DNA of 64,000 nt from Escherichia coli (lineage in GTDB: Bacteria > Pseudomonadota > Gammaproteobacteria > Enterobacterales > Enterobacteriaceae): NCBI RefSeq assembly GCF_050920415.1, contig NZ_CP169309.1, one strand, 5' to 3'. Shown piece by piece: positions 7,134 to 52,586 of the stretch (position 1 is its first letter; each line of letters starts with the position of its first letter). The position numbers and the translations under genes are program-made. The notes under the pieces were generated by a model, which worked only from the letters and a program-made list of their open reading frames with translations, had not been told where the DNA came from and made no database searches.

Positions 7134-7173
7134 TGCGCGGCGCATTATCCTGCCTGAGGGTAATGCGCCGCGC
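7134..7173 (+). terminator. GC-rich hairpin just downstream of puuP
   Basis: Inverted repeat gcgcggcgcatta...taatgcgccgcgc 9 nt after the puuP stop; no strong T-tract. Confidence 0.4.
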
Positions 7174-11299: not shown

Positions 11300-12291
11300 T
11301 GCCATTACTCGATATTCGTAACCTGACCATTGAATTTAAAACCGGTGATGAGTGGGTTAAAGCCGTCGACCGCGTAAGTATGACCTTAACCGAAGGTGAA
11401 ATCCGCGGTCTTGTTGGCGAATCCGGTTCCGGCAAAAGTTTGATTGCAAAAGCAATTTGTGGGGTGAATAAAGATAACTGGCGTGTTACTGCTGACCGTA
11501 TGCGTTTTGATGATATCGATTTGCTGCGTCTCTCCGCACGCGAACGGCGCAAGCTGGTTGGTCACAACGTGTCGATGATTTTCCAGGAACCGCAGTCGTG
11601 TCTTGACCCGTCAGAACGTGTGGGTCGCCAGTTGATGCAAAACATCCCAGCCTGGACCTATAAAGGCCGTTGGTGGCAGCGTTTTGGTTGGCGCAAACGT
11701 CGCGCTATTGAACTGTTGCACCGCGTGGGGATTAAAGATCACAAAGATGCGATGCGCAGTTTTCCCTATGAGTTGACAGAAGGTGAATGTCAGAAAGTGA
11801 TGATAGCCATTGCACTGGCGAATCAACCGCGTCTGCTGATTGCTGACGAACCGACCAACTCAATGGAGCCAACAACCCAGGCGCAAATTTTTCGCCTGTT
11901 GACGCGTCTCAACCAGAACAGCAATACCACTATTTTGCTTATCAGCCATGACTTACAAATGCTTAGCCAATGGGCGGATAAAATTAACGTGCTTTACTGC
12001 GGTCAAACGGTGGAAACCGCGCCAAGTAAGGAGTTGGTGACAATGCCACATCATCCTTATACCCAGGCGCTGATCCGCGCGATACCAGACTTCGGCAGCG
12101 CGATGCCGCATAAAAGTCGCCTCAATACGCTGCCCGGCGCTATCCCACTGCTGGAACAGTTACCGATTGGGTGTCGTCTGGGGCCGCGTTGCCCGTATGC
12201 ACAACGAGAATGCATTGTGACGCCACGTTTGACGGGGGCGAAAAATCATCTCTATGCCTGTCACTTCCCGCTGAACATGGAGAAAGAGTGA
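11299..12291 (+). CDS. sapD: Sap ABC transporter ATP-binding protein
   Basis: 330 aa with Walker A (GESGSGKS) and C-terminal oligopeptide-ABC domain. Confidence 0.92.
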
Positions 12292-12292
12292 G

Positions 12293-13099
12293 ATGATCGA
12301 AACGCTGCTTGAAGTGCGTAATTTAAGTAAAACGTTCCGTTACCGGACCGGCTGGTTTCGTCGTCAGACCGTAGAAGCGGTAAAACCTTTGAGCTTTACG
12401 CTACGTGAAGGCCAGACACTGGCGATCATTGGCGAGAATGGTTCTGGTAAATCCACGCTGGCGAAAATGCTGGCGGGAATGATAGAACCGACCAGCGGCG
12501 AGTTATTGATTGACGATCATCCGCTGCATTTTGGCGATTATTCCTTCCGTAGTCAGCGTATTCGCATGATTTTTCAGGATCCTTCGACCTCGTTGAATCC
12601 CCGTCAACGTATCTCGCAGATTCTTGATTTTCCACTGCGCTTGAACACCGATCTGGAACCTGAACAGCGTCGGAAACAGATTATTGAAACGATGCGGATG
12701 GTTGGGCTGCTACCGGATCACGTCAGTTACTATCCGCATATGTTGGCACCCGGGCAAAAACAGCGTCTGGGGCTGGCGCGCGCGCTGATATTGCGCCCAA
12801 AAGTCATTATTGCCGATGAAGCCCTCGCCTCACTGGATATGTCGATGCGTTCGCAGTTGATTAATCTGATGCTGGAGTTACAGGAAAAACAGGGCATTTC
12901 GTATATTTATGTTACCCAGCATATTGGGATGATGAAGCACATTAGCGACCAGGTACTGGTGATGCATCAGGGCGAGGTTGTCGAGCGAGGTAGTACTGCG
13001 GATGTGCTCGCCTCTCCGCTGCACGACCTCACTAAACGACTGATTGCCGGTCATTTTGGCGAGGCATTGACGGCGGATGCGTGGCGTAAGGACCGTTAA
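12293..13099 (+). CDS. sapF: Sap ABC transporter ATP-binding protein
   Basis: 268 aa with Walker A (GENGSGKST). Confidence 0.92.
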   Translation: MIETLLEVRNLSKTFRYRTGWFRRQTVEAVKPLSFTLREGQTLAIIGENGSGKSTLAKMLAGMIEPTSGELLIDDHPLHFGDYSFRSQRIRMIFQDPSTSLNPRQRISQILDFPLRLNTDLEPEQRRKQIIETMRMVGLLPDHVSYYPHMLAPGQKQRLGLARALILRPKVIIADEALASLDMSMRSQLINLMLELQEKQGISYIYVTQHIGMMKHISDQVLVMHQGEVVERGSTADVLASPLHDLTKRLIAGHFGEALTADAWRKDR

Positions 13100-13169
13100 T
13101 TTTCTGAATCAAGCTTGCAGAATATTCACCTCATTCTGACAGGGAAATTCATCCTGTCAGAATGAAGGG

Positions 13170-13532
13170 ATGGATAAAATAAAAGCAAATGCCCGCGATT
13201 TAAGACGCAACCTCACCCCGCAGGAGCGAAAGTTCTGGCGATATCTTCGCAGCCGACGTTTTGCTGATTTCAAATTTCGCCGTCAACATCCGGTGGGGAA
13301 TTACATTCTCGATTTTGCCTGTTGCTCTGCACGTTTAGCGGTAGAGCTTGATGGTGGGCAACATGATTCAGCTATCGCGTATGATACCAGGCGCACGCGC
13401 TGGCTTGAGTCCCAGGGCTGGACCGTGCTGCGTTTCTGGAATAACGAGATCGATCATAATGAAGAGGCGGTTCTGGGGGAGATTCTGCAGGAACTGAGCC
13501 GCCGGTCACCCTCACCCCAACCCTCTCCCTGA
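13170..13532 (+). CDS. ycjD: DUF559-family protein YcjD; 3' end runs into a repeat element
   Basis: 120-aa ORF MDKIKANARDLRRNLTPQERKFWRYL...; C-terminal codons lie inside the repeat region 13478-13568. Confidence 0.75.
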   Translation: MDKIKANARDLRRNLTPQERKFWRYLRSRRFADFKFRRQHPVGNYILDFACCSARLAVELDGGQHDSAIAYDTRRTRWLESQGWTVLRFWNNEIDHNEEAVLGEILQELSRRSPSPQPSP

Positions 13533-13740
13533 AAGGGCGAGGGGGCTGTATGTGCCTGTTTGTTGCTGCGCAGGCAAATGAACAAGCGGTGCCGGGGATC
13601 ATTCTGCAGGAACTGAGCCGCCTGTTACCCTCTCCCTGAAAGGGCATGGGGGCTGTATGTGCCTGTTTGTTGCTGGGGTGACAACGCGCACAATCGGTCC
13701 CCTCGCCCCTCTGGGGAGAGGGTTAGGGTGAGGGGAAAAG
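13478..13740. repeat. cluster of hairpin repeats: two direct copies (~13482-13568 and ~13601-13676) plus an inverted copy of the ccctcacccNaaccctctccc motif (13713-13736)
   Basis: Direct reading: attctgcaggaactgagccgcc...ccctctccctgaaagggc(g/a)(a/t)gggggctgtatgtgcctgtttgttgctg occurs twice; ggggagagggttagggtgagggg is the reverse complement of the motif at 13509-13529. Confidence 0.7.
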
Positions 13741-13888
13741 CGCACACCCGTGCCCACATTCCTGCCAACTATAGCCACTCACACCCAGGTTGATTATAAT
13801 AACCGTTTATCTGTTCGTACTGTTTATTCAAACGACGAATCGCCTGATTTTCAGGCAACAACAAGCATCAACAATAAGGATTAAAGCT

Positions 13889-14677
13889 ATGGGTTTTCTT
13901 TCCGGTAAGCGCATTCTGGTAACCGGTGTTGCCAGCAAACTGTCCATCGCCTACGGTATCGCTCAGGCGATGCACCGCGAAGGAGCTGAACTGGCATTCA
14001 CCTACCAGAACGACAAACTGAAAGGCCGCGTAGAAGAATTTGCCGCTCAATTGGGTTCTGACATCGTTCTGCAGTGCGATGTTGCAGAAGATGCCAGCAT
14101 CGACACCATGTTCGCTGAACTGGGTAAAGTTTGGCCGAAATTTGACGGCTTTGTACATTCCATTGGTTTTGCACCGGGCGATCAGCTGGATGGTGACTAT
14201 GTTAACGCCGTTACTCGTGAAGGCTTCAAAATTGCCCACGACATCAGCTCCTACAGCTTCGTTGCAATGGCAAAAGCTTGCCGCTCCATGCTGAATCCGG
14301 GCTCTGCCCTGCTGACCCTTTCCTACCTTGGCGCTGAGCGCGCTATCCCGAACTACAACGTTATGGGTCTGGCAAAAGCGTCTCTGGAAGCGAACGTGCG
14401 CTATATGGCGAACGCGATGGGTCCGGAAGGTGTGCGTGTTAACGCCATCTCTGCTGGTCCGATCCGTACTCTGGCGGCTTCCGGTATCAAAGACTTCCGC
14501 AAAATGCTGGCTCATTGCGAAGCCGTTACCCCGATTCGCCGTACCGTTACTATTGAAGATGTGGGTAACTCTGCGGCATTCCTGTGCTCCGATCTCTCTG
14601 CCGGTATCTCCGGTGAAGTGGTCCACGTTGACGGCGGTTTCAGCATCGCTGCAATGAACGAACTCGAACTGAAATAA
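13889..14677 (+). CDS. fabI: enoyl-ACP reductase (NADH)
   Basis: ORF trimmed to [26 protein letters not shown]..., 262 aa. Confidence 0.95.
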
Positions 14678-14820
14678 TCGTTCTGTTGGTCAAGATGGGC
14701 GGCGTTCTGCCGCCCATTATCTCTGTTATACCTTTCTGATATTTGTTATCGCCGATCCGTCTTTCTCCCCTTCCCGCCTTGCGTCAGGATAACGATTTCC
14801 TTCACGACCAAGGAGCGCCC

Positions 14821-15948
14821 ATGGAACAACGCCACATCACCGGCAAAAGCCACTGGTATCATGAAACGCAATCCAGTACTGCGGAGAATGACGTTCTGCC
14901 TCTGGTCCCGGAAGCCGCAAAGGTTCGCGATCCCTTTCTGCTCGACGTGATCCTTGATGAAGAAACGCTGGCCCCCTTCCTTTCATGGATGGTCCCGGCG
15001 CGCATTCTTGCAGCGGAGTTGTTCCCTGACCAGCTTACTGTGACCCGTTCACAGACCTTCACCGCTTATGAACGCTTGACGACGGCCCTGACGGTTGCTC
15101 AGGTTTGCGGCGTCCAGCGGTTATGTAACTACTATTCGGCGCGACTTACGCCGCTCCCCGGGCCTGATTCCTCCAGGGAAAGTAATCATCGGTTGGCACA
15201 AATCACGCAATATGCCCGCCAACTGGCCAGCTCGCCTTCTATTATCGACAACCGATCGCGCCAACATCTGAATGACGTCGGTCTTACTGCCTGGGACTGT
15301 GTGATAATCAACCAAATAATTGGTTTTATTGGCTTTCAGGCGCGGACAATTGCGACATTTCAGGCTTATCTCGGGCATTCGGTACGCTGGTTACCCGGTC
15401 TGGAGATACAAAACTACGCCGACGCGTCACTGTTTGCTGATGAATCAATACGCTGGCGAAGCAGCTATGAGGTGGAAAAACTACCTGAAGAGCACACAAA
15501 AAGTTCTAATGCAGAACTTTGCCAACTGACCGAAACACTCTCTCTCCACCCTATTTCACTTTCCCTTCTCGAAAAGTTGTTAAACAGCACACGGGTCAAT
15601 ACACAGCCGGATAATAAGCTTGCGGCGTTGTTATGCGCGCGTATTAATGGCAGTCCTGCCTGTTTTGCTGCCTGTATGAATTCATCAAATGAATATAAAA
15701 AAATCAGCCCCCTTCTGCGCAAGGGCGAAAATGAAATTAACCAATGGGCTGACCGTGATTCTGTTGAGCGCGCTACCGTTCAGGCGATACAATGGCTGAC
15801 CCGAGCACCCGATCGCTTTAGCGCCGCCCAGTTCAGCCCATTACTCGAACACGAAAAATCATCAACGCAGATTATTAATCTGCTGGTATGGAGCGGGCTG
15901 TGTGGCTGGATAAATCGCTTAAAAATCGCGTTGGGTGAGACATATTAA
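14821..15948 (+). CDS. yciW: uncharacterised protein YciW (CMD/peroxidase-related fold predicted)
   Basis: ORF trimmed to [17 protein letters not shown]..., 375 aa. Confidence 0.8.
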
Positions 15949-21330: not shown

Positions 21331-21598
21331 CCATTTCCCTTCTCTACGGATGATTTGCTGTTTTGCAAATCATCCGCTCTAAGATGATTCCTGGTTGATA
21401 ATTAAGACTATTTACCTGTTATTAACACTCTCAAGATATAAAATTATTATCAGCGATATAACAGGAAGTCATTATCACCTGCGTGATATAACCCTGCGCG
21501 CGAGCGGATTTCACGGAATAATTTCACCAGGCTTATTCTTAGCTATTATAGTTATAGAGAGCTTACTTCCGTGAATCATAAATTCAGGAGAGAGTATT

Positions 21599-26375: not shown

Positions 26376-26413
26376 CATTTGCTTGCCGGAAGCAAAATAA
26401 CCGGCAAGCAAAT
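26376..26413. terminator. bidirectional hairpin between convergent ribA and acnA
   Basis: Inverted repeat catttgcttgccgg / ccggcaagcaaat. Confidence 0.6.
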
Positions 26414-37158: not shown

Positions 37159-37163
37159 GGGAA

Positions 37164-37197
37164 AGCACCTCAAAAGATCGCCTCTTGAGGTGCTTTA
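37164..37197. terminator. hairpin downstream of btuR (also downstream of the 102-aa minus-strand ORF)
   Basis: agcacctcaa...ttgaggtgct inverted repeat followed by tttaat. Confidence 0.55.
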
Positions 37198-52553: not shown

Positions 52554-52555
52554 TA

Positions 52556-52586
52556 GTCAAAAGCCTCCGGTCGGAGGCTTTTGACT
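52556..52586. terminator. bidirectional terminator between convergent yciA and tonB
   Basis: tcaaaagcctccg-gtc-ggaggcttttga palindromic hairpin. Confidence 0.8.

Follow-up and report, generated by a model that had tools for sequence, protein, structure and literature searches.

The window analysed here, a 64,000-nucleotide stretch of Escherichia coli DNA (contig NZ_CP169309.1 of assembly GCF_050920415.1), carries sapF, the gene that closes the sapABCDF operon, followed by ycjD, a small gene of the DUF559 family, and then by fabI. The spacer between sapF and ycjD holds the palindrome cattctgacagg-gaaattcat-cctgtcagaatg. We tentatively favour a composite reading in which this palindrome is a dual element: as DNA it would provide the promoter of ycjD, and as RNA, on transcripts that read through from sapF, it would form a hairpin that insulates the gene.

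The palindrome occupies positions 13132-13164 as a 12-bp inverted repeat. A reading made earlier from the letters of the window (the sequence-only reading) had run its span to 13165; the 12-bp repeat itself ends at 13164, but 13165 is correct once the additional pair T13131-A13165 is counted, giving a perfect 13-bp repeat (13131-13143 / 13153-13165) around a 9-nt loop. The same reading correctly left 5 nt between the 3′ arm and the ycjD ATG and correctly placed the repeat after sapF, but the gap of 33 nt that it gave from the sapF stop codon (13097-13099) measures 32 nt to the 12-bp arm; the stem begins 26-32 nt past the stop. In its extended form the stem takes in the start codon, the last pair using A13170, the A of the ycjD ATG. 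Perfect inverted repeats with arms of 12 bp or more and loops of 3-20 nt number six in the window, whereas 40 dinucleotide shuffles gave 0.125 on average and never more than 1, so that the repeat, found as first described, is more than chance by this measure. Folding, which had been suggested as a check, gives a stable hairpin: the 45-nt element reaches -23.7 kcal/mol (z = -5.0) as plus-strand RNA, -24.3 kcal/mol (z = -6.0) as minus-strand RNA and -13.8 kcal/mol (z = -5.1) as single-stranded DNA. Directly 3′ of the stem stands AAGGGAUGGAUAAAA / AAGGGATGGATAAAA, with no U-tract, and a terminator scan of both strands found no T-tract and no terminator site at the palindrome, bearing out the earlier view that this is not a simple terminator. 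An Rfam 15 scan of 12000-15000 gave no relevant match, the sole hit being a chance PrrB/RsmZ elsewhere (E = 0.5). Four TCTGA/TCAGA half-sites of alternating orientation start at 13103, 13118, 13134 and 13157, the first pair making up a degenerate small inverted repeat and the second pair the palindrome.

Table 1. Features of the interval between sapF and fabI, in window coordinates
Feature	Position	Strand	Remarks
sapF	12293-13099	+	268-aa open reading frame; closes the sapABCDF operon; any read-through RNA would come from it; called SapF in the identical strain NZ_CP027579
sapF-ycjD spacer	13100-13169	+	70 nt; conserved 5′ flank of the DUF559 (YcjD-family) cassette
First small inverted repeat, degenerate	13103-13123	+	TTCTG...CAGAA; weak here, -2.7 kcal/mol, z = -0.2
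Extended imperfect stem-loop	13126-13170	+	arms 13126-13143 / 13153-13170, 18 nt, 89% complementary
Left arm, perfect 13-bp inverted repeat	13131-13143		
Mirror-image promoter-like CTGACA-16-CAGAAT	13133-13160	-	from scan; predicted start near 13126, antisense into the sapF 3′ end; K-12 equivalent at L001 2268-2295, plus strand
-35-like hexamer CTGACA	13136-13141	+	within left arm; promoter scan; listed for K-12 ycjD in PMC3946193
Loop GAAATTCAT	13144-13152		G13144/T13152 can add a G-U pair, leaving a 7-nt loop (minimum-energy structures)
Right arm, perfect 13-bp inverted repeat	13153-13165		
Extended -10-like element TGtCAGAAT	13155-13163	+	within right arm, 16-nt spacer from the -35; promoter scan, TG present
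Predicted transcript start	13170	+	A of ATG, 7 nt past the -10 hexamer; putative leaderless mRNA; no usable Shine-Dalgarno
ycjD	13170-13532	+	120 aa; DUF559, Vsr-like PD-(D/E)xK nuclease fold; Pfam DUF559 E = 6.6e-47, full length
GC-rich palindromic repeats and duplicated ycjD 3′ end	13500-13765		3′ part of the cassette
fabI promoter-like TAGCCA-17-TATAAT	13772-13800		10/12 matches; agrees with the Kim 2012 fabI start 81 nt upstream of the gene

At the DNA level, the two arms coincide with a pair of promoter hexamers. The combination CTGACA-16-CAGAAT has 9 of 12 consensus matches and an upstream TG, shows the spacing and the -10 A2/T6 expected of a sigma-70 promoter, and is found by the scan on both strands, in the window as in K-12. 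Genomic SELEX (systematic evolution of ligands by exponential enrichment) with RpoD holoenzyme on 200-300 bp K-12 fragments had already listed CTGACA-16-CAGAAT as a constitutive promoter of ycjD in the sapF-ycjD spacer, to which the sigma-70 holoenzyme bound in vitro (Shimada et al. 2014; PMC3946193). Hexamers, spacer length and place in the sapF-ycjD spacer are the same there and in the window; unlike here, the hexamers were chosen in silico, and the palindrome, a start at the ATG and an RNA hairpin go unmentioned in that study. Compared with the K-12 allele used there, the window allele carries GG/CC at its stem top and an ATG in place of ATA. The sequence-only reading had considered a protein-binding palindrome, and because the arms coincide with the -35 and extended -10 hexamers of this listed promoter (PMC3946193), the protein in question is probably RNA polymerase. 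Since the -10 hexamer ends at 13163, 6 nt before the ATG, the polymerase would be expected to start at or beside A13170. An AAGGG abuts the ATG with zero spacing, leaving no Shine-Dalgarno sequence at a functional distance, and the first 60 nt of the would-be leaderless transcript (13170-13229) are unstructured on folding.

The same arrangement recurs away from sapF. Seven other genera carry YcjD homologues at unrelated loci, and the 70 nt that precede their ATG align without gaps to 13100-13169. The homologues, of about 120 aa and 60-70% identity, occur in at least four flanking-gene contexts across eight genera: in Kluyvera and Klebsiella the gene is flanked by those for a solute-binding protein and a Dyp-peroxidase, in Enterobacter, Leclercia and Franconibacter it follows a hemN-like gene, and in Phytobacter and Enterobacteriaceae BIT-l23 it follows divergent genes and lies next to DUF2884/yggL. 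Conserved within the flank are the first small inverted repeat, with the motif ttctGAAg.c.G.TTccaga across genera, and a -35-like block (cTGACa or TTsTGA) placed 16 nt above a -10-like hexamer. The counterpart of the small repeat in Enterobacter, AAAATCCTGAAGGCTGATTCAGGATTTT, looks like an intrinsic terminator, with an A-tract, hairpin and T-tract. The -10-like hexamer (CAGAAT, CAGAGT or CACTGT; CAnnnT) ends 6 nt before the ATG at 9 of 10 loci in eight genera, and 7 nt before it at the tenth (L171, BIT-l23). No usable Shine-Dalgarno was present in any of the upstream sequences inspected across genera. Upstream of more distant DUF559 genes (L169, L170) the sequence is unrelated, so the conserved flank is specific to the YcjD subfamily of the Enterobacteriaceae. 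Complementarity of the arms in the Escherichia register amounts to 17-19 of 19 pairs in Escherichia versus 4-8 of 19 in the other genera. In a search for plasmid-borne copies of the cassette, the closest matches were chromosome-sized records or distant homologues.

At the RNA level, the strength of the hairpin follows the orientation of the upstream gene. We scored the segment from -45 to +1 of each YcjD-family ATG and took orientations from gene tables. With a co-directional upstream gene, the segment folds at -23.7 kcal/mol in the window (z -5.0), -24.2 kcal/mol in E. ruysiae (z -6.6), -32.2 kcal/mol in the common E. coli allele (z -10.1), -21.1 kcal/mol in Enterobacter (z -3.1), -27.1 kcal/mol in Leclercia (z -5.2) and -27.5 kcal/mol in Franconibacter (z -4.2). 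With a divergent upstream gene, the values are -9.6 kcal/mol in Kluyvera (z -1.1), -9.8 kcal/mol in K. oxytoca (z +0.2), -9.2 kcal/mol in K. quasipneumoniae (z +1.3), -2.3 kcal/mol in Phytobacter (z +0.7) and -11.7 kcal/mol in BIT-l23 (z -0.2). A strong hairpin is thus present at 6/6 co-directional loci versus 0/5 divergent ones, and over this segment the hairpins of Enterobacter, Leclercia and Franconibacter are built in a register of their own that differs from that of Escherichia. Because strong hairpins are confined to loci with a co-directional upstream gene, the comparison points to a role of the hairpin as RNA, on read-through transcripts.

Within Escherichia the stem is maintained through substitutions on both sides. 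The 72 metagenomic loci and the genome loci yielded 18 alleles, to which E. albertii and an Escherichia sp. contributed two further ones; every allele folds, with energies between -20 and -34 kcal/mol. The common ycjD-type allele has 18-bp arms, CACCTCATTCTGACAAGA / TCTTGTCAGAATGAGGTG, that form 19 pairs with the flanking T-A and are followed directly by the ATG. The K-12-type allele (~1,481 genomes, 78.6% identity class; L001 2256-2261, equivalent to NC_000913.3 ~1351755-1351760, minus strand) has one stem mismatch and ATA in place of the ATG, and the window allele, with GG/CC at the stem top and a weaker stem base, retains 13-14 contiguous pairs. When 15 Escherichia alleles were aligned, 86% of pair cells were paired, versus 35-49% with partners slid by 1-3 columns. 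At pair 12/38, 8 alleles have C-G, 7 have U-A and none is mispaired; five pairs show two-sided compensatory changes, and the covariation score was reached by 0 of 500 shuffles, a result to be read in the light of the small number of independent events. These compensatory changes, with the confinement of strong hairpins to co-directional loci, make plausible the other proposal of the sequence-only reading, that an RNA hairpin acts on ycjD initiation or on the 3′ end of the sap mRNA.

The palindrome is also conserved among strains, a check that the sequence-only reading had asked for. The ycjD-type spacer with its hairpin is found, one copy each, in 3,377 of 5,426 complete E. coli genomes; the exact spacer allele of the window, which matches strain 2013C-4282 exactly, is found in five. 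In the remaining genomes the match stops at the end of sapF, and an efflux island of ~8 kb, eefRABCD, lies between sapF and fabI. This polymorphism has been described (PMC12817139). The sapF-fabI interval holds one of two alternative cassettes, ycjD with its repeats (~0.67 kb) or eefRABCD (~8 kb) (window 13100-13765; L003/L005 for O157; L001 for K-12). By blastn, the homology of ycjD-type and eef-type spacers is confined to the hairpin at the left end and, at the right end, to the final 125-150 nt ahead of fabI, resuming ~125 nt before that gene; since homology on the left is restricted to the hairpin, this element marks the left edge of the ycjD/eefRABCD replacement. PMC12817139 draws ‘fragment conservation’, whereas in this comparison the ycjD-type spacer showed no remnants of eef.

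Although they lack ycjD, the eef-type strains carry a shortened hairpin behind sapF (-20 to -29 kcal/mol). Its core arms, ACCTCATCCTGA / TCAGGATGAGGT, are kept while the centre is shortened to 10-15 nt and the distance between the core arms varies from 10 to 17 nt through indels, and the spacing of the hexamers has collapsed to 9-14 nt, which leaves no promoter; what these strains retain is the structure and not the promoter. The hairpin here stands between convergent stop codons, 8 nt past that of sapF and 5 nt past that of eefD, and is followed by the T-rich GTTCATTACTTTTGATTG. At its top is a G/C homopolymer run whose length differs among isolates (L003, L004, L088 and others), as in GGCCCCCC, GGGCCCCCC, GGGGAACCCCCC and GGGCCCCCCCC. 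The match between the hairpin arms and the flank of the DUF559 cassette in other genera makes it probable that the ycjD cassette was at this site before eef.

Outside Escherichia, none of 77 loci has ycjD or eefD behind sapF, and the sequence after sapF is unrelated, consisting either of a terminator with hairpin and T-tract or directly of the fabI promoter region. At the sapF locus the hairpin is specific to Escherichia. Across 80 loci of other genera ycjD was likewise absent downstream of sapF, and there sapF and fabI mostly stand side by side. In many genera (L006-L085) fabI lies within ~120 nt of sapF, the two being joined by a conserved AGTGGTCGGATTAAC...GATAGAATCGCCGCGTTTTAACGACG segment, and a terminator is often missing. 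Co-transcription of sapABCDF-fabI has been shown in Dickeya and fits this adjacency (PMC9239193), which the Escherichia insertions broke.

Our composite reading brings these observations together as follows. As DNA, the arms would carry the core promoter of ycjD, made of the -35 CTGACA, a 16-nt spacer and the extended -10 TGtCAGAAT, from which RNA polymerase would start at or beside A13170 and produce a leaderless or nearly leaderless mRNA. Such an mRNA would lack the 5′ arm and so could form no hairpin, and its open, A-rich 5′ end would be ready for leaderless initiation. RNA that reads through from sapF would hold both arms and would fold at about -24 kcal/mol into a stem whose 3′ arm extends from -18 as far as the first letter of the AUG; the initiation region of ycjD would then be buried, and the nuclease-like protein would not be made from sap RNA. 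After termination further downstream, the U-tract-less stem-loop might be left as an exonuclease-resistant 3′ end of the sap mRNA. Promoter hexamers, protective stem-loops and leaderless mRNAs are each already known. What is new is that the palindrome and the listed promoter are one sequence, that the flank is shared across genera with a fixed distance between -10 and ATG, that the hairpin is linked to the orientation of the upstream gene, and that it is retained in eef-type strains. The sequence-only reading had missed that the arms are listed promoter hexamers, that the spacer is the 5′ flank of a DUF559 cassette and that the hairpin is kept behind sapF where ycjD is missing.

If this model holds, it would explain how a small and possibly harmful nuclease-like gene that has no ribosome-binding site is expressed, as a leaderless mRNA from a conserved promoter, and how ycjD is shielded from an operon that is transcribed into it. 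It would add a conserved family of leaderless genes to E. coli, where such mRNAs are rare, and offer a clean natural case of a single sequence that is a promoter at the DNA level and insulates as an RNA hairpin. The picture of how the sapF-fabI interval evolved is refined as well, with a hairpin that marks the left edge of the replacement and derives from the ycjD cassette flank. A wider claim, which we regard as possible though on balance doubtful, is that the YcjD-family DUF559 gene is a self-insulated travelling cassette, with a terminator upstream, a promoter that starts at the ATG and GC-rich palindromes downstream. Behind a co-directional gene, its promoter region would evolve into a palindrome that silences read-through RNA, so that only the leaderless RNA initiated at the promoter is translated; one DNA segment would then be both a promoter and a conditional off-switch in RNA, set by where transcription began. 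In practice the value lies in annotation (start codon, promoter and pseudogene calls) and in a testable case of transcript-origin-dependent translation. No major paradigm is changed, and overall this is a tidy but fairly ordinary instance of gene insulation, of modest interest.

Several points weigh against the composite reading. Templated correction of quasi-palindromes can create compensatory changes in DNA palindromes with no selection, and the 6-versus-5 split by orientation comes down to roughly two independent lineages against two to three. Promoter-scan sites are not more numerous than in shuffles (3 vs a mean of 1.4), and the -10 hexamers match weakly, at 4/6 positions in the window and 2-3/6 in other genera. 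The K-12 allele has ATA at the predicted +1, its sole start codon being a GTG within the stem, upstream of the predicted start; because ATA stands in place of ATG, K-12 ycjD is annotated from this GTG in the 3′ arm, and the gene may be poorly expressed or not expressed there. Downstream of the stem, the ratio of C to G is only 1.07-1.35, and with an excess this modest (at most 1.35) there is no clear Rho-loading site. The start table of Kim 2012 has no start at the predicted position or the hairpin, nor at the Klebsiella homologue, and assigns to ycjD only starts with 3-4 reads, 151-648 nt upstream and inside sapF. The Term-seq tables of Adams 2021 list no 3′ end between fabI and puuD, and the entries examined from Ettwiller 2016 and Yan 2018 show nothing for this region. 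Finally, leaderless mRNAs are rare in E. coli, at ~0.4% of mapped starts (PMC4782308).

An unlikely alternative is that the element is a promoter only, with hexamers that drive ycjD, a long complementarity that arose as a by-product and an RNA hairpin of no selected role. CTGACA and TGTCAG are mutually reverse complementary, so that quasi-palindrome correction could lengthen a symmetry already present, and it is the hexamers and their spacing that are kept across genera while the long palindromic register is peculiar to Escherichia. Binding of the polymerase in SELEX (PMC3946193) also fits a promoter. This alternative does not account for the hairpins of different register in Enterobacter, Leclercia and Franconibacter, which occur only with a co-directional upstream gene, or for the eef-type strains, which keep the hairpin after the promoter spacing is lost.

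We consider it equally unlikely that the palindrome is solely a stem-loop at the 3′ end of the sap operon, acting as an exonuclease barrier or as a terminator, weak or dependent on a factor, that the convergent eefD shares in eef-type strains, and that its likeness to a promoter is coincidental. In its favour, all Escherichia alleles, whether they have ycjD or lack it, keep the hairpin past the sapF stop, and in eef-type strains it lies close to both stop codons and ahead of a T-rich stretch; the promoter-like sites, moreover, are not above chance. Stable stem-loops with no U-tract are a described class that forms the steady-state 3′ ends of E. coli transcripts that depend on Rho (Dar and Sorek 2018, PMC6061677). 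The palindrome resembles this class (PMC6061677) in being a stable stem-loop with no U-rich tract right after the last gene of an operon, in the window and likewise behind sapF in eef-type strains. It differs in that the RNA downstream is coding sequence and that the stem overlaps a promoter and a start codon, and both the 3′ end and its dependence on Rho are putative here. A role confined to the sap 3′ end leaves unexplained why the hexamers are conserved without gaps at a fixed distance from the ATG at loci that have no sapF, and why polymerase binds in vitro; the lack of a 3′ end in the Adams 2021 tables also speaks against it.

The other readings that we weighed are, even when their chances are added up, improbable. 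An operator for a dimeric transcription factor, one form of the protein-binding palindrome first proposed, is very unlikely: the arms are perfectly symmetrical and the four half-sites alternate, but in other genera with the same cassette flank the arms lack complementarity, with symmetry at 4-8 of 19 positions, and in eef-type strains indels place the core arms anywhere from 10 to 17 nt apart. We know of no E. coli regulator with a TCTGA/TCAGA palindrome as its consensus. By eye, against known consensus sequences, sites for sigma-E (TCTGA), sigma-32, sigma-54 and a LexA box were rejected for misfits of spacing or hexamers. A shade less likely again is a processing site, at which the 17-19 bp stem in RNA reading through from sap into ycjD would be cut by RNase III or a different endonuclease, so as to separate decay of the sap mRNA from ycjD or make a ycjD mRNA with a short leader. 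The 19 consecutive pairs of the common E. coli allele (-32.2 kcal/mol) approach the length of known RNase III substrates, but the window allele has only 13-14 contiguous pairs, and a literature search found no study of RNase III cleavage sites that mentions sapF. A canonical intrinsic (Rho-independent) terminator of the sap operon is hardly credible: the stem is stable and lies just past the last gene of the operon, and terminators with hairpin and T-tract hold this place behind sapF in several genera (L009, L012, L022, L029, L060, L062), but the sequence, in which the stem runs into AAGGGAUGGAUAAAA with no U-tract and the scan is negative on both strands, contradicts it. A non-functional relic or neutral palindrome, to which the want of any known experimental phenotype or transcript end would lend itself, is no more credible, given that the element is kept with compensatory changes in E. 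coli, E. ruysiae, E. albertii and a cryptic lineage despite a dS of ~0.5 in the adjacent gene.

Comparison with known systems places the palindrome near several of them. Like intercistronic hairpins that occlude a start site, its 3′ arm covers -18 to +1 of the initiation region; unlike them, it has no Shine-Dalgarno to hide, and its effect on translation is one that we infer. Like repetitive extragenic palindromic (REP) sequences and bacterial interspersed mosaic elements (BIME), it is a stable extragenic palindrome at the end of an operon that could stabilise the upstream mRNA, but it is single copy, and it presumably bears no likeness to the REP consensus. A dispersed-repeat family of this kind was rejected, the hairpin and the whole spacer each having a median of one place per genome. 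Intrinsic terminators share with it a stem-loop after a stop codon, and the first small inverted repeat of Enterobacter looks like one of them, but here neither strand has a U-tract. Leaderless mRNAs, of which lambda cI transcribed from PRM is an example, share with ycjD the want of a usable Shine-Dalgarno, a -10-like hexamer ending 6 nt before the ATG and an open, A-rich start of the coding region; unlike for them, the start of ycjD is a predicted one, and K-12 carries ATA at the predicted +1.

Near the 5′ end of ycjD, the mirror image of the palindrome (Table 1) is the sole promoter-like site in antisense orientation. In K-12, an 83-aa open reading frame with a GTG start, antisense to sapF, begins in the outer arm. 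PMC12817139 reports that public browser tracks carry antisense signals, from both start-site mapping and ribosome profiling, close to where ycjD begins.

Residues 3-109 of YcjD match positions 2-108 of the 109-position DUF559 profile, and since this match is full length, the ATG at 13170 is the natural N-terminus. Between the window and K-12, the ratio of non-synonymous to synonymous substitution (dN/dS) is 0.17 at a dS of 0.48, indicating purifying selection, and a gene under such selection must be expressed somehow. The dS of ycjD contrasts with 0.21 in the flanking sapF and 0.06 in fabI, which suggests that the window allele was imported or anciently maintained. In an identical strain the NCBI Prokaryotic Genome Annotation Pipeline (PGAP) calls ycjD a pseudogene that is missing its C-terminus. 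The end of the gene is the site of a tandem duplication: 13458-13517 and 13577-13636, and likewise 13520-13577 and 13627-13684, are tandem duplicates of 83-90% identity that cover the last ~60 nt of ycjD and the next 58 nt and yield a truncated second DUF559 3′ end. The ycjD frame runs into the repeat and ends in SPSPQPSP.

Beyond the duplication lies a GC-rich palindromic unit (13690-13745, CCCCTCGCCCCTCTGGGGAGAGGGTTAGGGTGAGGGG) that is dispersed in E. coli, at a median of 17 places in each genome, and that we take to resemble boxC-type repeats. In other genera, YcjD homologues at unrelated loci are likewise followed, past the stop codon, by similar GC-rich units (L160, L162-L164). The DUF559 3′ end is single copy per genome, and a parent/derivative tie between it and the GC-rich repeat, in the manner of miniature inverted-repeat transposable elements, was rejected for E. 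coli as only the GC-rich unit is dispersed.

Elsewhere in the window, five other perfect inverted repeats of 12-14 bp lie at 7135-7173, 21347-21376, 26377-26413, 37162-37196 and 52555-52586. The repeat at 52555 (AGTCAAAAGCCTCC..GGAGGCTTTTGACT) looks like a bidirectional terminator, and that at 21347 matches the 3′ end of yciT, one with no U-tract, listed in the Term-seq table of Adams 2021.

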